Shown one piece after another: positions 8,865-41,212 of a DNA stretch of 43,596 bases (its first letter is position 1; each line of letters starts with the position of its first letter). The translations under genes were made by a program, and so were the position numbers. Below the pieces are notes generated by a model, which was given only the letters and a program-made list of their open reading frames with translations, was not told the DNA's origin and searched no databases. The DNA is from Candidatus Kaiserbacteria bacterium (GTDB lineage: Bacteria > Patescibacteriota > Minisyncoccia > Phycocordibacterales > Phycocordibacteraceae): positions 1 through 43,596 of the forward strand of contig JAPLWH010000026.1 of the NCBI GenBank assembly GCA_026396715.1. Direction: 5' to 3'.

Positions 8865-9404
8865 TCAGATGCCGGTATTTTTTGGTTCGGTTGTGGCGGC
8901 GTATTTCAGGATGAGGTCGCGCATCTGCTCTGGTCGGGGGATACCGCGCATATGGAATTCGTCAGAGGCACCAGCGGTTTGGACGCTAATATCGCCGAGG
9001 CCGAGCATCGAAGCGAGGATACCGGAGATGTTTGTGGTAACGTCTTGCACGCGTGACAGATTTAAACTTGAGACTTCGCGATGAAAGTAACTGCGTTGAT
9101 CGATATCGACAAGGCGCTTGTTGGTTAGTACCCAGGCATTGAGGAAGTAGCGGGTGCAGGCACCCCATGCGCCGGTCCAGGTAATGAGTAGCCACGCGCC
9201 GAGTACGGCGCGTGCGAGCGGCGCCTGATAGTCAAACAGTGCTGTGTAGGGTGCAAGCGATGGTGCAAGCACGAGGAATTTCGGAAGTGCAAAAGGGATG
9301 ATGGCGATGATGGCATAGGGAAGAAGCTCTTCAAGGAAGAGGAACCAATGCTTGCGGGATTCTTTTACGACATGTTCGCCCGGTTCGAGTTCAAATTCTT
9401 TCAT
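8865..9404 (-). CDS. Membrane protein with bacterial PH (bPH_2-like) domain
   Basis: Two TM segments, then WVLTNKRLVDIDQ...LSRVQDVT...LGDISVQTAG. Confidence 0.8.
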   Translation of the reverse strand: MKEFELEPGEHVVKESRKHWFLFLEELLPYAIIAIIPFALPKFLVLAPSLAPYTALFDYQAPLARAVLGAWLLITWTGAWGACTRYFLNAWVLTNKRLVDIDQRSYFHREVSSLNLSRVQDVTTNISGILASMLGLGDISVQTAGASDEFHMRGIPRPEQMRDLILKYAATTEPKNTGI

Positions 9405-12363: not shown

Positions 12364-14055
12364 TTACGGCATCGAGGTGATGATGTCTCGCTTGATATCG
12401 GCAAAGGTCCCGCCGACTTTCTTTCCGGGATTGAGGATGTTCTGCGGATCAAAGACTTTTTTTGTCGCTTCGAAAAGCGCGACCATTTCCGCGCCGAAAA
12501 GCATCGAGAGGTAGGGTGTGCGGATTATGCCGTCATTGTGTTCACCGGTTGTCGTGCCGCCCTCACGTATCACGAGCTCGTATATCTTTGGCGCGAGGTC
12601 GAGGATGACTTGCCGATTCTCTTCTTTGGAAAGATCCATGAGCGGGATGATATGGAAATTGCCATTGCCGATGTGGCCCGCGATAGTGTAGATGAAATGC
12701 GACTTGTATTCGTCGAGAAGTACATTTAGTTTCGGCAGGAACTCAGGATAGCAGGACGGCGGCACGACAAAGTCGTCGATGAAGGGTGCCGCGTAGAGAC
12801 CGTGGACATTTTTGCGCAGGAGCGCGAAGCTTTCGCGTCGCACGATCCAATATTTTTCGGATTCCTTTTCATCCTTTTCGACTTTCGCTTGTACGTGCAG
12901 TCCAGCGAGCGCCTCTTTCGCTTTCTGCGCTTTCTCGTCCGCCTCCTCTATCGTGTCTTCGGCGAATTCCGCCATGAGGATCATCTTCGGCACGCCGCCC
13001 GTAGCGACCATCGCCGCTTCGGGAATGAAGTCGATGCCGAGGCGCGCGGCCTTGAGGAAGCCCATCTGCGAGAGCATCTGAGGGATGAACTTCACGGCAA
13101 GTGTAAATGTGTGGTCGTCGTAACTTTCGAACGATTCGGGGTTTTCGAGCAGAACGCGCCGCACAACCTCCGGCAGGATGTCGAGGTCATAGAGGAAGAC
13201 GACGAGCATCGCGCGCCGCTCTTTTGGCGTCACGAGAGCGAGCTTCGCTTTTGTCCAGAGTGCGAGCGTTCCTTGGGAGCCGCAGATGAGCTTCGCGAGA
13301 TTAAAGGTGCCGGTCTTCGGATCGCGAATGCTCCAGAGCGCGTAGCCGGCAGAATTTTTTGAGACTTTCGGCCGGTGCGCCTCGATGAGCGCGGCATTTT
13401 TCGAGACGAGCGCGTCCATCGTGCGATAGATTGCCCCTTGAAGCGTTTGAAGCCTCTTCTTCTCCTCCAGTTCCGTAGGCGTGAGCGCTTTGAAAGTGGT
13501 TTGTGAGCCATCGGAGAGAACGACATCGAGCTCTTCAACATAGCGCTCCGTCTGTCCGTATTTGAGCGTACGTTCGCCGCCGGAATTATTCGCGACGATG
13601 CCGCCCATCGCGGCTATCTCGCGGCTCGCGGGGTAGGAGGGAAGCAGTAGATTCTTTTTTAAAGTCTCTTTTTCAAAATCTCTATAAAAAACCCCGGGCT
13701 CTGAAATGGCGTATCCCGCCATTTCATCCCGAGCGGAGTCGAGGGACACTACCTCGCCCATATGATTCATGTGTTTGGTAAAGGAGACGACGACACTGGT
13801 TGTGAGCGGTCCGCCGGTCATGTCGGTTCCCGCCGATCGCCCGGCAAGCGACACAGCCGCGCCCGCGAAGCGGGCGCGGCCTATCTCTTTCACGATTGCG
13901 CTCACATCCTCCGCATCTTTCGGATACACGACGAGCTCTGGCATCCGCATGAAGAGCGATGTGTCGCGGCTCATCTTTGTCAGCGTCGCTGCATCATCCG
14001 CGATCTCTCCTTTCATCACGCCTGCGAGCGCCTTTTTCAAATCTGCAGCAGTCAT
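12364..14055 (-). CDS. FAD-binding oxidoreductase (GlcD/D-lactate dehydrogenase-like)
   Basis: AGRSAGTDMTGG, GGIVANNSGG, GHIGNGNFH, GEHNDG, and FDPQNILNPGK. Confidence 0.88.
   Translation of the reverse strand: MTAADLKKALAGVMKGEIADDAATLTKMSRDTSLFMRMPELVVYPKDAEDVSAIVKEIGRARFAGAAVSLAGRSAGTDMTGGPLTTSVVVSFTKHMNHMGEVVSLDSARDEMAGYAISEPGVFYRDFEKETLKKNLLLPSYPASREIAAMGGIVANNSGGERTLKYGQTERYVEELDVVLSDGSQTTFKALTPTELEEKKRLQTLQGAIYRTMDALVSKNAALIEAHRPKVSKNSAGYALWSIRDPKTGTFNLAKLICGSQGTLALWTKAKLALVTPKERRAMLVVFLYDLDILPEVVRRVLLENPESFESYDDHTFTLAVKFIPQMLSQMGFLKAARLGIDFIPEAAMVATGGVPKMILMAEFAEDTIEEADEKAQKAKEALAGLHVQAKVEKDEKESEKYWIVRRESFALLRKNVHGLYAAPFIDDFVVPPSCYPEFLPKLNVLLDEYKSHFIYTIAGHIGNGNFHIIPLMDLSKEENRQVILDLAPKIYELVIREGGTTTGEHNDGIIRTPYLSMLFGAEMVALFEATKKVFDPQNILNPGKKVGGTFADIKRDIITSMP
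13728..13745 (-). repeat. REP-like motif CCCTCGACTCCGCTCGGG inside the FAD oxidase
   Basis: Same motif as 16144, 19062 and 21051; here read as S-L-D-S-A-R-D-E. Confidence 0.75.
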
Positions 14056-14205
14056 TGGGGATAAGTATACTCGATTTTTTCATCGGTACTCTGGATGAAA
14101 GGGAAACTAGGACATCTGGTGCAGGTGGGAAGTTATGCACTTGGTGCCATTGCGGCAAGCGAGATAGGAGTACTATTAAGTTATTAACCGAATAACATAT
14201 TTGCT

Positions 14206-14478
14206 ATGGAACACCACATTGATCCCGCAAAGACCGCGCTTACCGTCGGGGCATTTCTCGGAGGCTGGCATGTCATCTGGTCGGTTCTCGTCGCACTCGG
14301 AGTGGCGCAAGGAATCGTCGATTTCGTTCTCTGGATGCACATGATTAGCCTGCCGTATGTTGTAAAGGCATTTGACCCTTCAGCCGCAGCGACGCTTATC
14401 GTCATTACTTCGATCGTCGGTTACGTTGGTGGCTACCTCTTCGCGCATATCTGGAATCGGATGCATCGTGCCGCATAG
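14206..14478 (+). CDS. Hypothetical membrane protein
   Basis: 90-aa hydrophobic ORF with 2-3 TM segments. Confidence 0.7.
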   Translation: MEHHIDPAKTALTVGAFLGGWHVIWSVLVALGVAQGIVDFVLWMHMISLPYVVKAFDPSAAATLIVITSIVGYVGGYLFAHIWNRMHRAA

Positions 14479-14510
14479 TGACGAGGCATTGGAAACATTG
14501 CGGTTAGAGT

Positions 14511-14885
14511 ATGAGTGAAAAGCTTCCAGAAAATGAACACGAGAAGTTTCAGAAGTCGGTTGAGGTCGGTTTCGAATTGCAAAGGCAAGACGCCGAAGAT
14601 TCTGAGCGCGGACCTATCGTAAGGCGGATGCGCGCGATAGTTGAAAAGGCGCGTGAGAATTATGAAGACAATGTTGGATTTTTAAATGACCTCGCATCAT
14701 TCCGAGAATCATGGAATGACCATTTTACCGTCGCGGGAGCGCGACGGTATCGTTTGTATCACCTCATGACTGGAAGTTCTCCGTTGGGAAGTGCCATTTT
14801 TTTCGATGCTGAAGGAGAATGGTCCATCGCAAAGAAGGTGCAAGAGTTGGCCGAAAAACACACTATACGCACCGAAGAGGTATAA
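14511..14885 (+). CDS. Hypothetical protein
   Basis: 124-aa ORF filling the gap, directly upstream of the helicase. Confidence 0.65.
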   Translation: MSEKLPENEHEKFQKSVEVGFELQRQDAEDSERGPIVRRMRAIVEKARENYEDNVGFLNDLASFRESWNDHFTVAGARRYRLYHLMTGSSPLGSAIFFDAEGEWSIAKKVQELAEKHTIRTEEV

Positions 14886-14893
14886 TCGGGTCT

Positions 14894-16600
14894 ATGACCC
14901 AAGGCGAGGCGCTCACGATACTGAAGACGGGCGCGAACGTATTCCTTACCGGCGAGCCGGGGAGTGGAAAGACGCATACGGTCAATGCATTCGTCGAGTG
15001 GCTGCGTAATTCCGGCATCGAGCCCTCGGTTACGGCAGCGACCGGCATCGCCGCGACGCATGTCGGCGGCATGACGCTGCACTCTTGGAGCGGTATCGGC
15101 ATCAGTGAGTCGCTCTCGAAAGCCGACGTCGACCGCATCGCGACCAAAGAGCATATCGCGCGGCGCATCCAGAAAGCGAAAGTGCTCATCATAGAGGAGA
15201 TCTCGATGCTCTCGGCCTCGACTTTCGAAATGGCAGACGCCGTGTGCCGCGAGGTGCGCCGAGTCGACAAGCCTTTCGGCGGGCTCACGGTTGTCCTCGT
15301 GGGCGACTTCTTCCAGCTGCCGCCAGTCTCGCGCGGCCGCGAGGTCAAGTTCGCGTATTCGTCGGCAGTGTGGCGCGACCTGAGCCTTTTGACCTGCTAT
15401 CTCACGGAGCAGTACCGGCAGGACGATAGCGATTTCCTCAGTGTGCTCTCGGCGATACGCTCGGGGAATGTCGAAGAGCTGCACTATGAAGAGCTCATGC
15501 GTCGCCATCGCGACCCATCCGAGCTTCCCTTGGACGCGCCGAAGCTCTTTTCGCACAATGCCGATGTCGATCGCATCAATGCCGCTGAGCTCGCGAAGCT
15601 CAAGGGCGTTTCAAGGAAGTTCAGTATGAGCTCGAAAGGGAAAGACACGATGATCGAGGGGTTGAAGCGCGGCTGCCTTTCGCCCGAGACATTGGAATTG
15701 AAAGAAGGCGCGGTGGTCATGTTTACCAAGAATTCGCCGCAAGGGAAGTTCGTAAACGGCACGCTCGGCATCGTTACCGGCTGGGGCGCGGACGGCATGC
15801 CGATAGTGGAGACAAAAGACGGGCTCAGCATAAGCACTGAGCCGATGGAGTGGCAGCTCGAGGAGCAGGGCAAGGTAAAGGCGAGCGTCTCGCAGATACC
15901 GTTGCGGCTCGCGTATGCGATGACCGTGCACAAGAGTCAGGGGATGAGCATGGACGCCGCGATCATGGATCTCTCGAAGGCTTTTGAATACGGACAAGGG
16001 TACGTCGCGCTTTCGCGTGTGCGAAGGCTCTCCGGCGTATTTCTCACGGGCATGAATGCGCGCGCGCTTGAAGTGCATCCAGAGATTCTGGAGAAAGATA
16101 AGGATTTCCGCGCGGCGTCAGACGCCGCGCGGGATGCGTTCGCCCCTCGACCAGACTCGGGGCAAGCAGCAATGTCCGAAACAGAAATTATCGATATGCA
16201 GAAGAAATTCGTAAAGGCAGTAGGCGGCGCCTGGCTCGAAAACGAAGGGCACGAGAAGCAAAAAATATCCCGACAGGTTCGGGGCAAAACGGTCGCAGGC
16301 CTGCCGGGGCGGCTCGCCGAAACGCTGCAATCCGCGCGCGACGGAAAGTCGCTCGTTGAGGTCGCAAAAGTGCGCGGGCTCGCCGTCTCCACCATCGTGA
16401 AGCACTTGGAAGAGCTTGCAGAGATAGGGAAGCTCGCGCGTGCTGACTTCGCGCATCTTCTGCCGGACCATGGCGCGACAGACGAGATCCAGGAAGCGCT
16501 CGCCACCGCCGGCAAAGAGGTCCTCTCTCCCGTTTTTCACTCGCTCGGCGGTCGCTATTCTTTTGAAATAATCCGCCTCGTCAGGCTCGCGCGCGAATAA
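14894..16600 (+). CDS. Pif1/RecD-like helicase with C-terminal HTH domain
   Basis: GEPGSGKT, IIEEISM (Walker B with E in place of D), VGDFFQLPPV, TVHKSQGMS, QGYVALSR, and a C-terminal HTH (VAKVRGLAVSTIVKHL). Confidence 0.88.
   Translation: MTQGEALTILKTGANVFLTGEPGSGKTHTVNAFVEWLRNSGIEPSVTAATGIAATHVGGMTLHSWSGIGISESLSKADVDRIATKEHIARRIQKAKVLIIEEISMLSASTFEMADAVCREVRRVDKPFGGLTVVLVGDFFQLPPVSRGREVKFAYSSAVWRDLSLLTCYLTEQYRQDDSDFLSVLSAIRSGNVEELHYEELMRRHRDPSELPLDAPKLFSHNADVDRINAAELAKLKGVSRKFSMSSKGKDTMIEGLKRGCLSPETLELKEGAVVMFTKNSPQGKFVNGTLGIVTGWGADGMPIVETKDGLSISTEPMEWQLEEQGKVKASVSQIPLRLAYAMTVHKSQGMSMDAAIMDLSKAFEYGQGYVALSRVRRLSGVFLTGMNARALEVHPEILEKDKDFRAASDAARDAFAPRPDSGQAAMSETEIIDMQKKFVKAVGGAWLENEGHEKQKISRQVRGKTVAGLPGRLAETLQSARDGKSLVEVAKVRGLAVSTIVKHLEELAEIGKLARADFAHLLPDHGATDEIQEALATAGKEVLSPVFHSLGGRYSFEIIRLVRLARE
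16144..16161 (+). repeat. REP-like motif variant CCCTCGACCAGACTCGGG inside the helicase
   Basis: Same flanking arms as the other copies; read as P-R-P-D-S-G-Q-A. Confidence 0.65.
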
Positions 16601-16640
16601 TATAGACCATATAAGGGTGGGTGTGCTAAACTCATACCTT

Positions 16641-18044
16641 ATGCCCTTACAGACAAAAAAGACGAAAATAGTTGCTACGATTGGTCCGGCGACAGAGTCG
16701 CCGGAAATGCTTACCGCCCTCGTTGGGGCCGGCATGAATGTCGCACGCCTCAATTTGAGCCACGGCGACCACGCTGAGCACGGTGCTCGGATTATTAATG
16801 TTCGAAAAGTCGCAAAAGAGCTCGGAACGCCGATCGCGATCCTCTTCGACCTCTCCGGTCCGAAGATTCGCACCGGTTCCTACACTACCGACCGCATTAC
16901 GATCGAGGCCGGCCAGGAGCTCATTCTTACAAGCGAGGAGATTGTTGGTGACGCACATCGTTTTTATGTAAATTATCCGAAGCTCCCGCAGGAGGTCAAA
17001 GAAGGTTCCATCATCATGCTCGATGACGGCAAAAAGAAGCTTGTTGTGGAGCGTGTCGAGGGTACGGAGATACACTGCCGTATCGTCGTCGGTGGCGAAC
17101 TCAAGAGCCGTCGCGGCGTGAACGTGCCAGGCGCGTACCTCTCCATCTCGTGCATTACCGAGAAGGACCTGACCGATCTCGCCTTTGCCGTCGAGAATGA
17201 CGTCGACATGATTGCACTTTCCTTCGTCCGCCGAGCAGACGACGTGCTTCAGCTCAAAGCGCTTTTGCAAAAGGCAGGGAAGTCGATTCCAGTCATTGTG
17301 AAAATAGAGACGCAGGAGGCTATCGACAACATGTCGGAGATACTCGCGGTAGCCGATGGCGCGATGGTCGCGCGCGGTGACCTCGCGGTCGAAGTGCCGG
17401 CTGAGCAGGTGCCAGTCCTTCAGAAGCGCATCATCCGCGAAGCGAATGCGCTCGGGAAGCCAGTCATTACAGCAACGCAGATGCTCGAGTCGATGATACA
17501 GAGTCCCGTGCCGACTCGTGCGGAGGTGTCGGACATCGCAAATGCGATCTTCGATGGCACCGATGCGGTCATGCTTTCTGAGGAAAGCACCTTGGGGAAG
17601 TATCCGGTGGAAGCAGTCAAAATGATGACGCGTATCGCTGAGACTGTCGAGGCGAGCCTGCCGAAACCGGCAGTGGTAGTGATGAGTGCGGTCGATACGA
17701 TCAGCACTTCGTGTGTGGAGACAGCGGGGCATATTGGCGCCGCAGCCATCGTCACGCTTACCGAGTCAGGTGTTTCAGCGAAAATGATCGCGCGCTTCCG
17801 TCCGTGTTGCCCGATCATCGCGCTTTCTCCGAATCAGGCTACGGTTGAGCGTCTCACGCTCACTCGCGGTGTGTATCCGTTCCTCGCTGATGCAGGCAAG
17901 ACGACCGACGAGGTCATTGCATTCGTATCGAAATTCCTGTCTGATCAGAAACTCGCGAAATCAGGCGATAGTATCGTCATTACGGCAGGACTCAAGTTCG
18001 GCGTCGCTGGTTCGACGAACATGCTCTGCGTAATCACGCTTTAA
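16641..18044 (+). CDS. pyk: Pyruvate kinase
   Basis: KTKIVATIGP, ARLNLSHG, DLSGPKIR, IVKIE, MVARGDLAVE, TQMLESM, and DAVMLSEES. Confidence 0.97.
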   Translation: MPLQTKKTKIVATIGPATESPEMLTALVGAGMNVARLNLSHGDHAEHGARIINVRKVAKELGTPIAILFDLSGPKIRTGSYTTDRITIEAGQELILTSEEIVGDAHRFYVNYPKLPQEVKEGSIIMLDDGKKKLVVERVEGTEIHCRIVVGGELKSRRGVNVPGAYLSISCITEKDLTDLAFAVENDVDMIALSFVRRADDVLQLKALLQKAGKSIPVIVKIETQEAIDNMSEILAVADGAMVARGDLAVEVPAEQVPVLQKRIIREANALGKPVITATQMLESMIQSPVPTRAEVSDIANAIFDGTDAVMLSEESTLGKYPVEAVKMMTRIAETVEASLPKPAVVVMSAVDTISTSCVETAGHIGAAAIVTLTESGVSAKMIARFRPCCPIIALSPNQATVERLTLTRGVYPFLADAGKTTDEVIAFVSKFLSDQKLAKSGDSIVITAGLKFGVAGSTNMLCVITL

Positions 18045-18799
18045 TCTTTTGTAACGCCAGCCACTAGGGATTCGATGAGTCGCATCGTATCTTCGGGACT
18101 GGACACCGCGTGTGTTTGCGAAGCCGTCTTATAGACGGCTTCGTCGTTTCCACCCGCGCCGAGTTCGTCGCCGACGTAAAGCGCCTCAGACTCTTGGATG
18201 TCGAGGCGTTCGCAGAGTTTTCGGACGCCATAGGCTTTGTCGATACCGCGTTTTGTGACATCGATTGAGGTTGTGCCGCCGATGCTGACCAAAAACCCCG
18301 GTAACCGTTCGGCGATGTATTCGCGGAGCGCAGAGCGTTTCGTATGGGTCGGATCCCACGCTTTCTTTTCGTCGAGTGGTGCGCGCTGCCCGAGCGCGGA
18401 AAGCGTTACCTGTCCGCCGCGGTATTCGATGCGCTCTCCATAAGCGGGAACCGCAAAATCGATGAGTCCTGTTTCGGCGCCAGCCGCGCGCATCGCCGCT
18501 TCAATTGTGTACGCTTCTTTTTCCGATAGGCGTTCCTCGTATATTTTTTTCCAGTCGCCATTGTCATATGCGTAGAGCGCTGCACCGCTCGTCGGAAGAA
18601 GGTAGAGATGTGCGAGGTTTGCTCCGCGCGGGAGTTCCGTGACTGCCTGCGAGAGGAATTGCGGCAAAGCGCCGCCGGAGATAATCGCGACGCGCGTAGC
18701 AGCGAGAAGCTGTGTGAGAAGTGTCGCCATCTCAGTCGTAATCGGCTGCTTGCTTTCAGTAAGCGTACCGTCGAGATCGAACATGATGAGCGTAATCAT
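18041..18799 (-). CDS. HAD-IIB hydrolase, eukaryote-type phosphomannomutase-like
   Basis: FDLDGTL, ISGG, IEYRGGQVT, IGGTTSIDVT..GIDKAYG, and YVGDEL..GGND. Confidence 0.82.
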   Translation of the reverse strand: MITLIMFDLDGTLTESKQPITTEMATLLTQLLAATRVAIISGGALPQFLSQAVTELPRGANLAHLYLLPTSGAALYAYDNGDWKKIYEERLSEKEAYTIEAAMRAAGAETGLIDFAVPAYGERIEYRGGQVTLSALGQRAPLDEKKAWDPTHTKRSALREYIAERLPGFLVSIGGTTSIDVTKRGIDKAYGVRKLCERLDIQESEALYVGDELGAGGNDEAVYKTASQTHAVSSPEDTMRLIESLVAGVTKD

Positions 18800-18808
18800 A
18801 CTGATTAC

Positions 18809-18915
18809 GCGAGCGGCAGTGCAATTTCAGAGTACAGCGTGATTTTCTGCTGAAAATCCGCTTCGCTCTCGCGCCGTCGCGCTGCGAGAGCCTCTGAAAT
18901 TGCACTGCCGCTCGC
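18809..18915. repeat. 107-bp Y-shaped inverted-repeat element (24-bp perfect outer stem, two inner hairpins)
   Basis: 18809-18832 is the exact reverse complement of 18892-18915. Inner stems are GATTTTC/GAAAATC (18841-18858) and GCTCTCGC/GCGAGAGC (18865-18891). Confidence 0.85.
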
Positions 18916-18962
18916 TGCATAGTTTGCGAGAACCTTATATTTTCTTAGTCGTGTGCCTCGAG

Positions 18963-20900
18963 TCATGAAAGAGCTTCAACGATATGCGCGAGTGATGCGG
19001 TCGCGACGCCGATGACCTTGTCGGCTGCGCCATAGTAGAGGAAGAGCGTATCGCCGCCTGTCCCGAGCGGAGTCGAGGGGCGGACGACCGTGCCGCAGGA
19101 GAAGACGACGTTCGCGACCTCGCCTTCTTGCTCATACTTTTCCAACGGTTCGAAGATCGGGTCGGCAGTGCGGGCGAGGACTACGGTGCCGGATGGGTCG
19201 ATGAGCGCGGCGCCGAGGCGGTACTTGCTGTGGCGCGAGACGCCGTGGTAGATCATGAGCCAGTTATCGCCGATTCTGATCGGCGGCGCCGCGACGCCAA
19301 CTTTTGCTCCGTCCCACATGCCGCGGCGTGGCGTCATGATCTCAATGCAGCGACTCGCGCGTTTCCCCGAGATGAGGTCGGGTAAGAGGTCGGCGCAGAT
19401 CTGGTTATTGATGCGATGGTAGAGTAGATAGTTCCCATCAATTTTTTCAGGCAGGAGCGCGAGATCTTTATCATCCACGTTTTCGAGGGTCAACAGAAAG
19501 GGTGTGCTCCAGCGATCGAATCGCCGCGCGAGGAAATCATCGACGCGTATCGATGAGATCGCGCCGGAGGGCGCACGGACGCCGTCGTAGGCCGTGTAGG
19601 TCATGTACAGTGTGTCGCCGATGCGCACGATGCGCGGATCTTCGCAGCCGGAGTTACCGGTGGGAGTGCCGCGCTTCATTTCAAAGCTTTCGCGCGGCGC
19701 ATAGATAGGTTCCGGCAGGCGTTCGTCGATGGATACGCCATCTTTTGAGATAGCGAGGCCGATGGTCGACGTGTTCAGTGCGTCCATCGCGCGATACAGG
19801 ATGTATATCGTTCCTTCGAGCTCGATTGTTGCGGCATTGAAGACACTCTGGCTTTCAAAGCCCGTGCCTCGCGGCGTAAGGATCGGATTCTGTGTCGCGC
19901 GCGTGAAGGTGCGGGCGATTTGTTTTGGGTCGAGTGCGCGCAAGAGGTCGGACCGCTTCACATTTGCTTTGGCGCATACGGTATCCGCCCCACCATACCA
20001 AATCTCAAATTGGTCAGCGTTTACGGTCACACTTGTTGGGAAGACGATGTGTGGCACGAGGCCGTACTCTTCGTAGATCTCTTGGGGCACGAGGATGGAT
20101 TCGGTGCGCGATATGAGTTTCTGCGGATTTTCGAGAGTAAGCAGTGCCGCTTCTACTGAGAAGATACGGTCGCGTTCATGGTAATAGTTCTGGATGTAGG
20201 AATAGACGAGTAGCCAGCCTGCGTCGGTCTTGAGTGGGGTGGCGCCGACCTCGATATGGTCACCGTCGTCACGTCGCAATTCATCGAGTGCGTGGTCGGC
20301 GAGATTATTGTGCCATTCGTGCCAGTATTCGGGATCGAAAAAGTCCTCGACTTGTTTGGCGCGTGCAAGTGCGATTGTCGGGCGCGGATGCTCCGCCGTC
20401 CAATCGGTGTGTGCGGTTAAAAGGAGGACGACATCACCGTTCACGCGTTCAGGGAAGAGTGTTGCGGCTTTCGCATTAAAGGGCGTGATGAGGTGCCGCT
20501 CGGTAAAAGCATCAGGCGCGTCGCCGACGGCGACGGCAACTTTTATATTGTCGGGACCGAACGGCCAGCCGCCGAGCGCGGTATAGAAACAGTACCAGCG
20601 GCCTTCAAAGAGGGTTACTCGTGGATCTTCGCAGCCGAACGTGTCCCAGGACTCTTTCGGCACGATGACCTGGCGCCGCGAGTGGAAATGTATGCCGTCT
20701 TCTGAAAATGCACTGCCGACACTCGAAAGTCCTGCTGTCGGCGTCTGAAGCGCATCCGGGTTTCCGAGTGCGCGATAAAACAGGTGCACGCCGTCTTTGG
20801 TGCGAACAACCGAAGGGTTAAATGTCGCAATCGATTCCCACGGGCGCTCGCGTTGCGGCGAGAGGAGCGGATTATGCGATTCTCGGCGGATGACGAACAT
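18963..20900 (-). CDS. Tandem two-domain GH130-like glycosidase/phosphorylase
   Basis: Two repeats of NP.L.P...WE....FN, GCEDPR, and VVFxxG...YYGxADxV. Confidence 0.85.
   Translation of the reverse strand: MFVIRRESHNPLLSPQRERPWESIATFNPSVVRTKDGVHLFYRALGNPDALQTPTAGLSSVGSAFSEDGIHFHSRRQVIVPKESWDTFGCEDPRVTLFEGRWYCFYTALGGWPFGPDNIKVAVAVGDAPDAFTERHLITPFNAKAATLFPERVNGDVVLLLTAHTDWTAEHPRPTIALARAKQVEDFFDPEYWHEWHNNLADHALDELRRDDGDHIEVGATPLKTDAGWLLVYSYIQNYYHERDRIFSVEAALLTLENPQKLISRTESILVPQEIYEEYGLVPHIVFPTSVTVNADQFEIWYGGADTVCAKANVKRSDLLRALDPKQIARTFTRATQNPILTPRGTGFESQSVFNAATIELEGTIYILYRAMDALNTSTIGLAISKDGVSIDERLPEPIYAPRESFEMKRGTPTGNSGCEDPRIVRIGDTLYMTYTAYDGVRAPSGAISSIRVDDFLARRFDRWSTPFLLTLENVDDKDLALLPEKIDGNYLLYHRINNQICADLLPDLISGKRASRCIEIMTPRRGMWDGAKVGVAAPPIRIGDNWLMIYHGVSRHSKYRLGAALIDPSGTVVLARTADPIFEPLEKYEQEGEVANVVFSCGTVVRPSTPLGTGGDTLFLYYGAADKVIGVATASLAHIVEALS
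19062..19079 (-). repeat. REP-like motif inside tandem GH130 gene
   Basis: CCCTCGACTCCGCTCGGG-ACAGG; peptide VVR-PSTPLGTG-GDTLF. Confidence 0.8.
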
Positions 20901-20903
20901 AGG

Positions 20904-22082
20904 TCAGGTCGTCCGCGTAGGGCTTATCGCGATAAGCGAAGGCTGGCTTCCCTCGACGAGGGCGTCGAGAAATGTTTCAAGCGGCGTGGTCGCGACGCAG
21001 ACGACCTTGTCCGCGCCGCCATAGTAGACGAAAAGCGTGTTATCGCCTGTCCCGAGCGTAGTCGAGGGACGCACGACGGCGCCGCAGGCGTAGACGATGC
21101 CCGGTTTGCCGTGATTCTCATAGCGCTCGTCGGGAGAGAGTACTGGCGCTGCGGCGCGATGAATCACCTTCGTCGGGTCATCGAGATCGAGCAGCATCGC
21201 GCCGAGCTTGTAGCGATTCGGCTCTTCCGGATCCATCGCGTGGTAGAAGACGAGCCAGCCGCGCGGGGTCTTGAGCGGCGGCGGGCCGGCGCTGCGCATC
21301 CGGTGATGCCAGGCGATTTGCGCGTCCGGCATCTGGTGCGGATCAGGGCTCGTGAATTTCATCTGCGCGAGCTCGGCGAGGTCGTCGGCGTATTCGATGC
21401 GCACGCGGGCGGCATCGTCGCCGATGATGCTGTGCAGGATGGCGAACTGCCCGCCAATCTTTTCGGGGAAGAGCACCCAGTTTTTATCTCGCGTACCGTG
21501 CGAGAGTATGATCGGACCTTCCCATCTATCGAAGCGCTTTGCAAGAAAATCTGCTTCGCTCATCGAGATGACGGCGACGCGAAGCATCCAATTCTCGAAC
21601 ATGTTGAAGGTAACGTATACACGCCCGTCGATCGCTACCATACGCGGGTCTTCACAGCCGCCCCAGCTGCCGCCCGAAGGGTACATGACGGGAGAGTAGT
21701 GCCGCAGATGAGCGGCGACCTTTTGCGGATTTCGTGCGACGTAAGCGGGATAGGGGGGTCGCTCATCAAAAACGAGGCCGTCCGGACTGCTCGCGTAGCC
21801 GAGCCGCGAGACGCCGTCCATGCCGATGGCGCGATACACGAGGTGCGTCCGGCCGCCGAGTACGGCGGCCGCCGGATTCAAGACCGCCTCCGCGGTCCAA
21901 GGATGAGTTCCCGGCTGGAGGATAGGGTTGTGTGCGGATTTTGAAAGCAGCAGACGTTCGAGATGCAGAATCTCGATAAGCTTCGTACGAATCGGTTTTG
22001 AAAATGCGGCACCAAGAACCGCTCCGATGACGAAGAAGGAAAAGAGCAGTGCGATGATGTTTACCGCGAAAGGGAAACTCAT
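20904..22082 (-). CDS. GH130-like glycosidase with N-terminal TM anchor
   Basis: N-terminal hydrophobic helix; AVLNPAA, GGCEDPR, KNWVLFPEKI, and YYGGADKV. Confidence 0.85.
   Translation of the reverse strand: MSFPFAVNIIALLFSFFVIGAVLGAAFSKPIRTKLIEILHLERLLLSKSAHNPILQPGTHPWTAEAVLNPAAAVLGGRTHLVYRAIGMDGVSRLGYASSPDGLVFDERPPYPAYVARNPQKVAAHLRHYSPVMYPSGGSWGGCEDPRMVAIDGRVYVTFNMFENWMLRVAVISMSEADFLAKRFDRWEGPIILSHGTRDKNWVLFPEKIGGQFAILHSIIGDDAARVRIEYADDLAELAQMKFTSPDPHQMPDAQIAWHHRMRSAGPPPLKTPRGWLVFYHAMDPEEPNRYKLGAMLLDLDDPTKVIHRAAAPVLSPDERYENHGKPGIVYACGAVVRPSTTLGTGDNTLFVYYGGADKVVCVATTPLETFLDALVEGSQPSLIAISPTRTT
21051..21068 (-). repeat. REP-like motif inside single GH130 gene
   Basis: CCCTCGACTACGCTCGGG-ACAGG; peptide VVR-PSTTLGTG-DNTLF. 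Confidence 0.8.
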
Positions 22083-39174: not shown

Positions 39175-40539
39175 TCATTTCGAAAAATCCGCGTATGCCA
39201 TCTCGCGCTTGCCCTCGGGGATGACGCGCTCGATGGTGAATTGACCGTTTGCGAGTGACGCTTTGACTATCTTCATGCGTTTTCCTCCGCCAGCTGGCGG
39301 ATCGAAAAAATACGTACCGATGGTGTCGGCGTACGCGCGATACTTGTACCAATTCTCTTCGGCAGGCGCATCGAGCGAGAGCAGGCCGTCTTCTTTTTTG
39401 AGTTTCCCAGCGCGTGTTGCGTGCGCGTGTTCTTGTGGGACGGGAATGATGTCGCCCGAGAGGTAGGCAGGAAGTGTTTCGACAAGCAGTGCTGCGCCGA
39501 TCTCTATGAGTCGCGGGCGCAGTTCGCGCGCAGTTTCGCCGGGTGCGATCTCTGTTGCTTCTTGTGCGAGGACGTCGCCCGCATCAAGCTCTTTGACCAT
39601 TTTCTGCAGGCTCACGCCGGTCATCGTGTCGCCTGAAAGCAGTGCCGTCTCAAGTGGTGTCGCGCCGCGGTATTTTGGCAGCAGGGAATAATGCACGTTG
39701 ATGACGCCTTTCGGAAAGGCGCGTATTAGTGTTTCGGGAAATATTTTTCCATACGCGACGACGACTGCGTATTCGCATTCGTAGGCGGTGATCGCCTCGA
39801 TTGCCGCCGCATCGAGTTTTTCGGGAGTCATGACTGGAATGTCATGCGCAAGTGCGAGCGCTTTCGTCTCAGAAGGCGTGAGTACGAGGCCGCGACCCCG
39901 CGGCGCGTCGGGAGACGTCACGACAACAGCGGGCACGAAGCCGCTCTCTATGAGTGCGGCAAGCGTTTCGCTTGCGACGCCCGGCGTACCGAAATACGCG
40001 AAGCGATGCTCTGACCGGTGGGAGACGCGCGTGAGGTGCTCGGCATGATCGATGAAGAGAATGCCGTTCAAGTGATCCATCTCATGTTCGAATATCTGCG
40101 CCATGAGGCCGCCGGCACCGCGCTCAAAGGGCGTGCCGGTAACGTGTCGTGCTTTGATCGTGACGCGCTCGTGACGGCTCGTCGTGCCGTAGATGCCGCG
40201 CACCGAGAGGCAGCCCTCGTCCACGAATGCGCGCTTGCGGGAAGTTTTCAGGATTTCGGGATTGAGGTAGACATCGACTTCCGGCGGAGGCGGCGGAGGA
40301 AGTGTCTCGCCCGCTACTTTTCTCTGAAGGGGGAGTGTGCGGTCCTTCCGTACGATGAAGATGCGATAGGACATGCCAATTTGCGGCGCAGCGAGCGCGA
40401 CGCCTTCGGGCTGCTCTTCAAGCGCTTCGGACATGTCTTTGATGATCTGCGCGAGCTTGGGCGTGTCGAAAAGCCCGTCGGGTACGGGCTGAGCGATTTC
40501 GCGCAGTACTGGCGCGCCGTCTTGCACGATCTCTTTCAT
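39175..40539 (-). CDS. def-fmt: Peptide deformylase / methionyl-tRNA formyltransferase fusion (454 aa)
   Basis: N-half has GVALAAPQIG, EGCLSV and HEMDHLNG (PDF). C-half has FGTP, VVTSPDAPRGRG and NVHYSLLPKYRGATP (Fmt). No stop between the halves. Confidence 0.92.
   Translation of the reverse strand: MKEIVQDGAPVLREIAQPVPDGLFDTPKLAQIIKDMSEALEEQPEGVALAAPQIGMSYRIFIVRKDRTLPLQRKVAGETLPPPPPPEVDVYLNPEILKTSRKRAFVDEGCLSVRGIYGTTSRHERVTIKARHVTGTPFERGAGGLMAQIFEHEMDHLNGILFIDHAEHLTRVSHRSEHRFAYFGTPGVASETLAALIESGFVPAVVVTSPDAPRGRGLVLTPSETKALALAHDIPVMTPEKLDAAAIEAITAYECEYAVVVAYGKIFPETLIRAFPKGVINVHYSLLPKYRGATPLETALLSGDTMTGVSLQKMVKELDAGDVLAQEATEIAPGETARELRPRLIEIGAALLVETLPAYLSGDIIPVPQEHAHATRAGKLKKEDGLLSLDAPAEENWYKYRAYADTIGTYFFDPPAGGGKRMKIVKASLANGQFTIERVIPEGKREMAYADFSK
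39286..39301. repeat. 16-bp perfect palindrome inside the fmt domain
   Basis: TCCGCCAGCTGGCGGA, encoding D-PPAGG-G. Confidence 0.65.
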
Positions 40540-40652
40540 CCCGTTAGAAATAGGACGCGGACGCGCAGGCAAAGCCGCCGCCGAACCCTATTTGATTAGA
40601 GTTGATAATTGAACCCGTCTCTCGGTTGAGGCGTCCGCGATTTCTAACGGGA
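40539..40652. mobile_element. MITE-like element copy 1 (114 bp) at the def-fmt start codon
   Basis: 13-bp perfect TIRs TCCCGTTAGAAAT/ATTTCTAACGGGA, inner 9-bp IR, and TTCA direct repeats at 40535-40538 and 40653-40656. Confidence 0.75.
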
Positions 40653-40690
40653 TTCATGTGGCGAACTATACCAAAAAATTAGCGCGGTGT

Positions 40691-40828
40691 GTGCTTGGTC
40701 GGGTCCAGTTCCCACCCCGTGAGATAGCCGCAGACGGCATCTCACGGGGCGAGACTCATTGCAAAAGTATCCGCACAGTTATTGGAAATTTTATCTGGCT
40801 TCGTGCTTGGTCGGGTCCAGTTCCCACC
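40691..40828. repeat. 26-bp direct repeat (40691-40716 and 40803-40828) with an intervening hairpin (40715-40749)
   Basis: GTGCTTGGTCGGGTCCAGTTCCCACC occurs twice; the hairpin is CCCCGTGAGAT...ATCTCACGGGG. Confidence 0.85.
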
Positions 40829-41084
40829 AGAATTTTTTGCCGAAGTTTTTTGCCTGGCTGCAGATGCTCTTCAGATAGTAGAGGTCCTGCGTCGGTATTT
40901 TTTCGAGGACGCTGCCGAGGTGCGCCATAGTCATGGGCGCGAGCCCGTCTTTGGTGCGCGAGTGATTCAGGTGGCGCAGGAAGAAGCGCATCATCTCGCC
41001 ACGCTCGGTCTGGCGCTTCCTTCCTTTGGGTGCCGCCGCCGCTTTTCGTTCGAACTCGGGAAGCATCTCGCCGATTGATTTCAT
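40791..41084 (-). CDS. Hypothetical protein (97 aa)
   Basis: MKSIGEMLPEF...DLYYLKSICSQAKNFGKKFWWEL; co-oriented between murA and def-fmt. Confidence 0.75.
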   Translation of the reverse strand: MKSIGEMLPEFERKAAAAPKGRKRQTERGEMMRFFLRHLNHSRTKDGLAPMTMAHLGSVLEKIPTQDLYYLKSICSQAKNFGKKFWWELDPTKHEAR

Positions 41085-41203
41085 CCCGTTAGAAATAGGA
41101 CGCGGACGCGCAGGCAATGATGCGTCCGAACCCTATCCGATTATGGCTGGTAAGCGAACTCGTCTCACGATTTTCACAGAAGCGTCCGCGATTTCTAACG
41201 GGA
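41084..41203. mobile_element. MITE-like element copy 2 (120 bp) at the start codon of the 97-aa gene
   Basis: Same TIRs and TTCA flanks (41080-41083, 41204-41207). 39 nt at the left and 27 nt at the right (counting flanks) are identical to copy 1. Confidence 0.75.
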
Positions 41204-41212
41204 TTCATAGCA

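Follow-up and report, generated by a model that had tools for sequence, protein, structure and literature searches.

How the same short sequence came to lie, in frame, in four protein-coding genes of one 43,596-nt stretch of DNA from a Candidatus Kaiserbacteria bacterium (the window) is the question raised by this locus. In an earlier note, four copies of an 18-mer had been read as REP-like, active units of about 24 nt that add about 8 amino acids (aa) to an FAD oxidase, a helicase and two GH130 genes without breaking any open reading frame. All four copies of this core, CCCTCGAC-N4-CTCGGG, were found in the window, compared with none expected from 100 dinucleotide shuffles, and the naming of the host genes agrees with Pfam (Table 1). 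The copies are stop-free and occupy three reading frames, giving the peptides listed in the table. We propose, with a probability of about 0.6, that the sequence is a discrete 24-nt interspersed repeat, an atypical relative of the REP- and Ssn-type hairpin repeats, which is still spreading and has a candidate GIY-YIG partner.

Table 1. Copies of the repeat unit in the window and the genes that carry them.
Feature	Positions	Strand	18-nt core	Remarks
FAD-linked oxidase (FAD_binding_4 + FAD-oxidase_C)	12364..14055	(-)		Pfam
Unit copy in FAD-linked oxidase gene	13723..13746	(-)	13728-13745	Exact core match; frame S-L-D-S-A-R-D-E
PIF1-like helicase, C-terminal HTH_40 domain	14819..16600	(+)		Pfam
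Unit copy CCCCTCGACCAGACTCGGGGCAAG in PIF1-type helicase gene	16143..16166	(+)	16144-16161	Frame P-R-P-D-S-G-Q-A
GH130 phosphorylase-like protein, two GH130 domains (paralogue B)	18963..20900	(-)		Pfam, domain matches
Unit copy CCCCTCGACTCCGCTCGGGACAGG, last propeller blade, two-domain GH130 gene (paralogue B)	19057..19080	(-)	19062-19079	P-S-T-P-L-G-T-G
GH130 phosphorylase-like protein (paralogue A)	20904..22082	(-)		Pfam, PDB relatives
Unit copy TCCCTCGACTACGCTCGGGACAGG in single-domain GH130 gene (paralogue A)	21046..21069	(-)	21051-21068	P-S-T-T-L-G-T-G

The conserved unit is 24 nt long rather than 18. It reads YCCCTCGAC-N4-CTCGGG-R-CARG, with a pyrimidine at position -1 and R-C-A-R-G at positions 19-23, and its edges are sharp: across 87 to 131 cross-phylum copies, information content is at background level outside positions -1 to 24 and the flanks are unrelated. 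The copy in the FAD oxidase gene has TCCG as N4, T at position -1, A at position 19 and the 3' tail ATGAA in place of ACARG. In the 705-kb genome, exact copies of the core exceed either class of near-copies (11 exact, 4 with one mismatch and 9 with two); none was expected, which contradicts a chance frequency, and a reversed-pattern control gave no match in 41 relatives or in 401 genomes of the phylum. Using a looser pattern, about 23 copies were obtained, 21 of them genic and distributed across 18 genes, the hosts being about 18 housekeeping genes of an ultra-small bacterium. The spacer TCCG is present in 3 of the 11 exact copies of this genome compared with 5 of the 87 tallied cross-phylum copies, an excess that suggests copying within the lineage. 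Genic copies use three frames and both strands, and 14 of the 21 lie on the sense strand in the frame that begins Pro-Ser-Thr (PST). The claim that all copies are in sense holds for the four in the window and fails genome-wide, where two antisense copies lie in the DnaJ gene and one each in the SerRS and MurE genes; a head-to-head dimer of units is found in MurE. In other phyla, non-coding DNA and terminator loops hold copies.

When the window was scanned with Rfam, a tRNA was the sole match, and no near-copies that would point to an rRNA or tRNA origin of the unit were found elsewhere in the genome. The unit was also considered as half of a longer inverted-repeat element, which was rejected: partners are rare within 8 kb and, where present, mostly stand in direct tandem. 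In sequence, the window's start-codon hairpin elements (40535-41208) bear no relation to the unit. A literature search for the DNA and peptide strings of the unit found no paper, and its peptides are missing from the supplementary lists of intragenic REPs (Di Nocera et al. 2013, PMC3733652).

Alignments with orthologues revealed a clean gain of 24 nt (8 aa) in 11 genes, including GH130 A, GH130 B, PIF1, UvrD, class II aaRS, ScpA, RseP, DnaX, MurC (site a) and a TrpRS-like gene, and orthologues without the unit are shorter by 8 aa in the aligned genes, as expected for in-frame insertions of the proposed size. An example of the predicted peptide spanning an insert is VVRPSTPLGTGGDTLF. The PIF1 insertion is missing in the nearest relative (G013; 95% identical protein) and in eight other orthologues, and the FAD oxidase copy, which corresponds to a gain of about 9 aa inside a length-variable loop, is missing in G013 and three other genomes. 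At least five sites (PIF1, FAD oxidase, UvrD, class II aaRS and RseP) are filled in this genome and empty in G013 and the outgroups. Since the proteins of G013 are 92-97% identical to those of this genome, these insertions are recent; judged from the alignments, they show that copies were added to this lineage recently as exact 24-nt blocks, and the claim of activity is borne out to that extent. Some junctions are unclean, with a gain of 18 nt and three replaced bases at DnaJ site 2, a net gain of 6 nt at DnaJ site 1 and a gain of 18 nt in HK, and the junctions of DnaJ site 2 and UvrD are fuzzy, with 1-3 nt of microhomology. The earlier note had also looked to a target site and its duplication, and neither a consensus among the reconstructed empty sites nor a duplication at any reconstructed junction was found. 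In the contigs of four public runs from two separate studies, all four window copies were recovered without a gap or skip, and no empty-site variant was seen in these contigs, which hide rare variants. The genome is present in freshwater samples.

The shared insertion site of the two GH130 genes had been explained either by inheritance from before their duplication or by site-targeted insertion. The former is refuted, as both paralogues occur insert-free in about 18 other genomes and the 8-aa insertion is confined to this genome and G013, and the latter is unlikely because the empty sites share no consensus. Copy A of G013 is identical to copy B of this genome over about 35 nt, including the B-type codons downstream, which is best explained by a putative short-patch gene conversion between the adjacent paralogues. 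Between the orthologous copies of the two genomes, the spacer differs and the 20 conserved positions are fixed. In alignment with a solved GH130 structure (9fj8_A), the insert of GH130 A falls on a gap in a beta-hairpin turn.

The element also occurs outside this lineage: the same 24-mer was found at no fewer than 120 loci in more than 15 phyla. Its spacer varies freely, whereas 20 of the 24 positions do not change across a range that reaches from Acidobacteriota to CPR bacteria and includes a Nanoarchaeota bin. Among related genomes, G008 carries six copies.

As for its structure, a simple palindrome was rejected: the unit is a poor Watson-Crick palindrome, and under standard DNA energy rules its folding does not surpass that of shuffled sequence, for either strand and whether the unit is taken alone or with flanks. 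Two covariations nevertheless support an imperfect hairpin. Positions -1 and 19 covary (C/G 63, T/A 23, T/G 6, C/A 34; Fisher p = 3e-5), and a sister variant has both an additional T in one arm and an additional A in the opposite one (4/4 copies compared with 0/18). In the hairpin model, the complementary strand, 5'-CYTG-Y-CCCGAG-N4-GTCGAGGG-R, could form a stem of 7 pairs, two adjacent ones being G.A mismatches instead of Watson-Crick pairs, closed by a mini-loop of the C-GNA-G type and preceded by a TGYC tag, and a stable fold is predicted for the strand 5'-CCTGTCCCGAGCGGAGTCGAGGGG-3' only, not for its complement. The description as REP-like can therefore be kept only in part, since the covariations favour it, whereas the folding and the failure to match either the SRM string or the stem rules of CGTC-tagged REPs, both given below, do not.

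The earlier note had suggested looking for a cognate mobiliser, GIY-YIG proteins included, and a candidate exists on contig C4 (1563-1826). It encodes an 88-aa protein from a clade of single-domain GIY-YIG proteins of about 90 aa with one member in this genome; a paralogue is encoded on contig C28 (15191-15421). For 15 of the 17 close relatives of this protein and 6 of 60 distant ones, the 150 nt upstream of the gene contain a hairpin that shares the arms of the unit, always in one orientation, compared with a control rate of 0.0025 per 150 nt, and the same arrangement is found for its orthologues in G012 and G031, the latter from another family. At one Spirochaete locus, a GIY-YIG gene is followed downstream by a tandem array of the unit. 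The clade's nuclease is the likely partner enzyme, and a repeat that adjoins a small single-domain GIY-YIG gene is a feature of the Ssn system. Because the hairpin is seen only on the upstream side of genes of this clade, it could also be a regulatory element of the nuclease gene. Dispersed copies lie near GIY-YIG genes at 1 of 80 cross-phylum loci, and among the GIY-YIG genes of the genus the unit is near only the C4/G012 locus (1 of about 30); the link emerged only when the search began from this specific nuclease clade. In G008, the best match to the candidate is 39% identical, and there is no close orthologue.

Several known systems are close to the unit, hairpin repeats with small nucleases among them. 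SsnA and its homologues act as nucleases on single-stranded DNA with specificity for hairpins, and their own repeats flank their genes (Chenal et al. 2025, PMC11893778). As in that Ssn/SRM (NTS) system, the candidate partner here has about 90 aa and GIY-YIG as its single domain; beside its gene, in fixed orientation, there is a short hairpin repeat whose predicted 5' tag resembles (C/T)GTC; more copies are dispersed in the genome, and the distribution across phyla is patchy. However, none of the 11 exact copies matches the SRM string HGTCWYN(0-2)YYVSBRHN(0-5)WNVSBRGN(0-2)RNCYNB on either strand (3 matches in the whole genome compared with 3-8 in shuffles), the stem base has no A/T pairs, the stem has two mismatches, the hairpin is upstream only, and there are about 20 copies, most of them inside genes and in frame, instead of hundreds. 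The CGTC/TGTC-tagged REPs (PMC3733652) are likewise short stem-loops with a 4-nt loop and no known transposase that occur in several phyla, occasionally in frame within replication and repair genes and occasionally as head-to-head dimers, here seen in MurE. Their stems are perfect, 8-9 bp long and start with A/T pairs, and they end in a CCA tail (PMC3733652), whereas the unit has at most 7 pairs including two mismatches, no basal A/T pairs and random flanks, and genic copies, which are found among those REPs as well, are here the rule rather than the exception. Those REPs have an unpaired CGTC or TGTC tag at one end; in the unit, the start of the complementary strand, ..YTG-Y-CCCGAG, gives TGTC or TGCC, the last base or two of which fall within the stem.

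Rickettsia palindromic elements (RPE), reportedly described by Ogata et al. in 2000, are selfish repeats. The resemblance noted earlier holds, as an analogy, for the effect on proteins: in both cases the genome is reduced, its housekeeping genes receive in-frame insertions, and surface peptides are added with function kept (summarised in PMC10969869), and the loop insertion that leaves the reading frame open is seen here in the clean gains of 8 aa in 11 genes and at the GH130 beta-hairpin turn. The resemblance fails for size and host range, since, compared by description, RPE-1 type elements are about 100-150 bp long and confined to Rickettsia, whereas the unit is 24 nt (8 aa) long and occurs in more than 15 phyla. 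Compared with MITEs, which have terminal inverted repeats and a target-site duplication, the unit has arms that form only an imperfect inverted repeat, and no duplication.

Several other explanations have to be weighed. The most serious, though unlikely, is that there is no dedicated enzyme and that the unit spreads passively by template switching or microhomology-mediated repair, gene conversion and horizontal transfer, the copy upstream of the GIY-YIG genes being simply a further insertion or serving to regulate them. The fuzzy junctions with 1-3 nt of microhomology, the resemblance of the GH130 pair to gene conversion, the copies in genomes without the candidate nuclease and the dispersed copies unlinked to GIY-YIG genes are all in its favour, but it leaves unexplained the 20 of 24 identical positions from Acidobacteriota to CPR and the Nanoarchaeota bin with a free spacer, the sharp edges, and, for 15 of the 17 members of one nuclease clade, an upstream hairpin of specific position and orientation. 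Movement by RAYT-like Y1 (HUH) transposases, as proposed for GTAG REPs/REPINs, would account for hairpin repeats without target duplication, as such insertion by an enzyme acting on single-stranded DNA is established for IS200/IS605 and a trans enzyme of this kind is proposed for REPs, and three Y1_Tnp-like proteins of 230-247 aa with an HxHLL motif (one above the Pfam cut-off) are encoded here. However, the 1.5 kb around each of the three genes is free of units, and the palindromes that flank each gene are its own and unrelated to the unit. The unit also lacks a GTAG head, is mostly single rather than in inverted pairs and shows no short conserved target sequence, which makes this explanation very improbable.

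It is improbable, too, that selection maintains the motif for some role that it plays itself, as a DNA uptake or recognition sequence or as a peptide module PSTxLGxG serving as a modification or cleavage site. The strong excess of the sense strand and PST frame (14/21) and the drift of the spacer around 20 fixed positions between the G000 (this genome) and G013 orthologous copies are points in its favour, and the Ssn repeats of Neisseria modulate transformation (PMC11893778). Against the peptide stand the use of three frames, both strands and, elsewhere, non-coding DNA and terminator loops, and the invariant synonymous positions in the unit, which place the constraint on the DNA rather than on the peptide. 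Known uptake sequences (DUS/USS) occur at about 1 per kb; the 11 to about 23 copies in the 705-kb genome amount to about 1 per 30-60 kb, far below this, and most related genomes have zero. That the repeat is an artefact of assembly or contamination is hardly credible: nearly all carriers are metagenome-assembled genomes, but the four runs of the two studies reproduce all four copies with identical sequence, the G013 orthologous copies differ in spacer, and the isolates Blastomonas AAP53 and Aequorivita antarctica as well as one single-cell genome carry the unit.

For the spreading hairpin repeat with a GIY-YIG partner, which we prefer, a mechanism can be suggested. By analogy with N. meningitidis SsnA, the clade's nuclease would recognise the hairpin in single-stranded DNA, and our best guess is that new copies arise by a single-strand process begun by the nuclease, in which the hairpin-bearing strand is copied or annealed at replication or repair gaps. 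GIY-YIG enzymes cut DNA, and joining is not known among them. Gene conversion may then pass copies on among sequences that resemble each other, the two GH130 genes being an example. Because the length of the unit is divisible by three and all six of its frames are free of stop codons, its insertion would never truncate a protein. With almost the whole genome coding, the surviving copies would be those in tolerant surface loops. Most copies are in sense and are read in the Pro-Ser-Thr-x-Leu-Gly-x-Gly frame, which gives a flexible turn.

A bolder version, which we hold only tentatively, is that the 24-nt hairpin is itself the mobile unit, moved in trans via single-stranded DNA by the Ssn-type GIY-YIG nuclease of about 90 aa, and that the nuclease gene with its upstream hairpin is the autonomous form of a cross-phylum 'micro-transposon' that writes 8-residue loops. 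If this were true, it would be the smallest propagating DNA element known, its autonomous form would hop between phyla, and it would be a natural generator of Pro-Ser-Thr-x-Leu-Gly-x-Gly loop insertions in essential proteins of streamlined genomes.

In conclusion, a 24-nt block that is near-identical across more than 15 phyla, and that essential genes of a 0.7-Mb genome are still gaining, stands at the lower size limit of mobile-like DNA. The in-frame insertions of REPs and RPEs and the Ssn hairpin nucleases, which were described separately, may now be connected, and a testable candidate enzyme can be named for repeats long said to lack a transposase. Where PSTxLGxG, LDxARx or RLRSGQA turns up as a stray peptide in a database protein, it is probably translated repeat. 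In addition, the repeat shows a route by which loops can be added to conserved enzymes in candidate-phyla (CPR) bacteria.

The motif CCCTCGAC-N4-CTCGGG, where N4 is a spacer, has exactly four matches in the window, versus none expected from 100 dinucleotide-preserving shuffles, and all four are open and lie on the sense strand of their genes, in three frames between them, as the earlier note had described. The 7.8-kb stretch holding the four copies is matched without gap or skip by contigs of four public runs from two studies. At 14644, upstream of the helicase start, one base is missing in three of the four runs, a difference due either to strain polymorphism or to an error in a homopolymer. 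The window is contig C21 of genome G000 (705 kb, 98% complete, relatives 0.4-1 Mb). Across this genome, exact copies of the 18-mer number 11, with 4 further sites at one mismatch and 9 at two, and this predominance of exact over near-copies is the pattern given by a propagating or constrained sequence. Using a looser pattern (TCGAC-N3-5-CTCRGG), 25 sites were found in G000, against 1 and 4 when two control patterns were run. They include a sister form, CCCTTCGAC-N3-CTCAGGG, and about 23 sites look genuine, 21 within 18 genes and 2 intergenic.

The unit is not confined to this lineage. When one genome per prokaryote species was scanned with CCCTCGACNNNNCTCGGGRCARGC, at least 120 loci carried it, and the matches listed include Acidobacteriota, Planctomycetota, Chloroflexota, Alpha-, Gamma- and Deltaproteobacteria, Verrucomicrobiota, Gemmatimonadota, Omnitrophota, Spirochaetes, Nitrospinota, Zixibacteria, numerous CPR lineages, one Nanoarchaeota bin and two isolates (Blastomonas sp. 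AAP53 and Aequorivita antarctica). These copies have unrelated flanks, and information content is at background beyond the unit except at position -1, which is a pyrimidine (C 75%, T 23%); position 24 varies among G000 copies. The conserved block is therefore 24 nt (-1 to 23) rather than the 18-mer first noticed, with the consensus Y-CCCTCGAC-N4-CTCGGG-R-CARG and a spacer that is mostly T-[T/G]-C-G, ending in G in 93% of copies. Among Patescibacteria, the 23-mer is present in 18 of 401 genomes (18 of 320 genera; reversed control 0), G000 being the richest sampled with 8 copies, and the 18-mer is found in 12 of 25 genomes of its genus at 1-11 copies each. Some loci of other phyla (L079, L094, L107 and L147; Gemmatimonadales, Vicinamibacterales, Acidobacteria) have two or three 24-nt units in direct tandem, and these arrays are not simple slippage duplicates because spacers can differ inside one array (e.g. 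AGAA then AGGG). At non-coding loci L080, L113, L132, L148 and L079, the unit sits inside the loop of a pre-existing terminator-like inverted repeat, for example GCGGACCtgac-(unit)-aaGGTCCGC, a hint that the unit may land preferentially in single-stranded loop DNA.

Alignment with orthologues revealed clean insertions of 8 aa (24 nt), as the earlier note had anticipated, in both GH130 genes (A, single-domain; B, two-domain), PIF1 and seven other genes or sites (UvrD/PcrA, class II aminoacyl-tRNA synthetase, ScpA, RseP-like protease, DnaX, MurC site a and a TrpRS-like gene), and the orthologue reading was restored by removing 24 nt in most cases. Other sites are less regular (see table). In UvrD and the TrpRS-like gene, the unit is 23 nt with a 3-nt spacer, and one extra base 4-6 nt downstream restores the frame; this base may have come in with the unit, or may be a compensating mutation acquired afterwards. 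Aligned to the solved structure 9fj8_A, the GH130 insert falls opposite a gap in the turn that joins two beta strands. G013, the nearest relative (proteins 92-97% identical), shares three filled sites with G000 (GH130 A, GH130 B and the TrpRS-like gene), five sites (PIF1, FAD oxidase, UvrD, aminoacyl-tRNA synthetase and RseP) are filled in G000 only, and every tested site is empty in more distant species; copies were thus gained before and after these two species separated. The proposal of a recently active micro-element, resembling Rickettsia palindromic elements (RPE) and adding 8-aa loops, is supported by these comparisons. The TCCG spacer, found in 3 of 11 exact G000 copies versus 5 of 87 cross-phylum copies tallied, suggests that new copies may be made from resident ones. 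The target site and duplication that the earlier note had hoped to define did not emerge, the reconstructed empty sites having neither a consensus nor a target-site duplication.

Coordinates and properties of unit copies, irregular insertion sites and candidate mobiliser genes (C, contigs of G000)
Feature	Location	Strand	Size	Remark
FAD-linked oxidase, unit core copy	window 13728	-	~+9 aa	SLDSARDE; loop of different length in every species
PIF1-type helicase, unit core copy	window 16144	+		PRPDSGQA
GH130 B, unit core copy	window 19062	-		PSTPLGTG
GH130 A, unit core copy	window 21051	-		PSTTLGTG
UvrD	C7:117335			23-nt unit
TrpRS-like gene	C16:25696			23-nt unit
MurC site b			+7 aa	orthologue alignment
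Histidine kinase (HK)			+6 aa	orthologue alignment
DnaJ site 2			+6 aa	three bases replaced, Arg kept as Arg
DnaJ site 1			net +2 aa	Gly/Arg linker, already motif-like, overwritten
MurE	C8 ~9075-9140		~+17 aa vs G009 orthologue	head-to-head pair: antisense sister copy GCTCTGAGCTTATCGAAGGA (LSLSKD), 8 nt, sense standard copy (PLDSARGAG)
Small GIY-YIG gene	C28:15206-15421
Small GIY-YIG gene	C29:12080-12286			appears within or beside a region resembling structured RNA, with CCAGCCCCAGTTT repeats at its borders
Small GIY-YIG gene	C20:1581-1781
Small GIY-YIG gene	C4:143-307
Small GIY-YIG gene	C4:1563-1826
RAYT-like Y1 gene	C25:11756-12499		230-247 aa (all three)	IS200-type HUH
RAYT-like Y1 gene	C20:27074-27766			IS200-type HUH
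RAYT-like Y1 gene	C20:19767-20486			IS200-type HUH

The adjacent GH130 genes, which are ~37% identical, carry the unit at the same place, and inheritance from before their duplication had been offered as one explanation. Both genes are insert-free in ~18 genomes of the order, so the insert does not predate the duplication. Copy A of G013 and copy B of G000 share ~35 identical nt, unit included, extending into downstream codons (GGC GAT AC) that are typical of B and not of A. Short-patch gene conversion between the neighbouring genes is the simplest explanation, and is favoured because the sites have no target consensus, yet the paralogue flanks are ~80% identical; a second, separate insertion at the shared site is conceivable. 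GH130 B itself (18963-20900) is a 645-aa ORF with two tandem GH130 domains, an architecture shared by relatives, in several of which one stop codon interrupts the frame at the domain junction.

With a length of 24 nt and no stop codon in any of six frames, the unit causes neither frameshift nor translation stop when inserted. The sense orientation seen throughout the window does not extend to the whole genome: among 21 genic copies in G000, 14 are sense in the P-S-T-x-L-G-x-G frame, 2 read L-D-x-A-R, 1 reads P-R-x-x-S-G-Q-A and 4 are antisense. Finding 14 of 21 in one frame of six is far from random, and a mechanistic strand bias could possibly account for it. The synonymous positions are invariant, which places the constraint on DNA, and our interpretation is therefore that the bias reflects which insertions are tolerated, with a flexible Pro/Gly-bounded turn and hairpin-free mRNA being favoured.

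The palindromic character first attributed to the motif was borne out in part. Folding by standard DNA energy rules was no better than for shuffled sequence, but two covariations favour a helix. Positions -1 and 19, which would pair, covary (C/G 63, T/A 23, T/G 6, C/A 34; Fisher p = 3e-5), and in the sister form the left arm is longer by one T and the right arm, jointly, by one A (4 of 4 copies versus 0 of 18). On the complementary strand, the arms CCCGAG and CGAGGG oppose C-G, C-G, C-G, G.A, A.G and G-C, and the commonest spacers are exactly C-G-N-A. Adjacent G.A mismatches are stable in the 5'-YGAR-3' context, and DNA mini-hairpins closed by C-GNA-G are very stable. Judged from these arms, the complementary strand alone would fold into a compact hairpin, with a TGYC tag ahead of it. 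In sense-oriented copies, the mismatch positions become U.C and C.U in mRNA, so that no strong hairpin faces the ribosome.

RAYT/Y1 and GIY-YIG proteins had both been named as possible mobilisers. The three RAYT-like Y1 genes of G000 are each flanked by their own perfect palindromes (e.g. AATGTGGACTTCGTAAGTCCACATT), unrelated to the 24-mer, and no unit lies within 1.5 kb of any of them, which argues against this partner. The GIY-YIG suggestion fared better. Besides uvrC-like matches, G000 has five GIY-YIG genes (88-121 aa) in two sequence groups, and one standard copy and one inverted sister copy lie upstream of C4:1563-1826. Its orthologues in the related genomes G012 (59% identical) and G031 (66%, another family) have copies 29-60 nt upstream of the start codon in the same orientation. 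An alignment of this clade was used to scan metagenomes, and a hairpin sharing these arms and this orientation, in some cases with a longer loop, was found at most 150 nt upstream in 15 of 17 relatives at 50% identity or more and in 6 of 60 more distant ones (control elsewhere in the same loci, 0.0025 per 150 nt). Downstream of a Spirochaete GIY-YIG relative there are tandem copies of CCCCTCGACTACGCTCGGGGTGACA. At metagenome loci L246-L262, the nuclease gene often follows a tRNA gene and a conserved segment, CTCGTGGYAAVCCACC, and the inner stem of the upstream hairpin is frequently enlarged (CCCTGAGCGAGCGAAGCGAGTCGAAxGGGC); integration of the cassette may take place at tRNA genes. Dispersed unit copies at the loci examined are not near GIY-YIG genes, and the related genome G008, with six copies, has no close orthologue of the C4:1563 nuclease. 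Ssn nucleases, GIY-YIG enzymes of ~94 aa, have hairpin repeats on the flanks of their genes; they bind such a repeat on one of its strands and cleave single-stranded DNA a few nucleotides upstream (PMC11893778). A small GIY-YIG gene beside a hairpin repeat resembles this picture; however, none of 11 unit copies fits the published SRM search string, and the hairpin lies on a single side of the gene here. The unit also does not satisfy the stem rules of CGTC-tagged REPs (PMC3733652). From gene neighbourhoods, we regard this specific clade as a candidate partner of the unit.

In conclusion, the element is of a kind already known, that of REP/Ssn-type repeats and in-frame repeat insertions, and our literature search found no published description of the 24-nt unit. 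What is new is the delimitation of the unit at 24 nt, its nearly identical sequence in different phyla and the evidence for an imperfect hairpin, as well as gene conversion as the likely explanation of the GH130 pair and a GIY-YIG clade as candidate partner.
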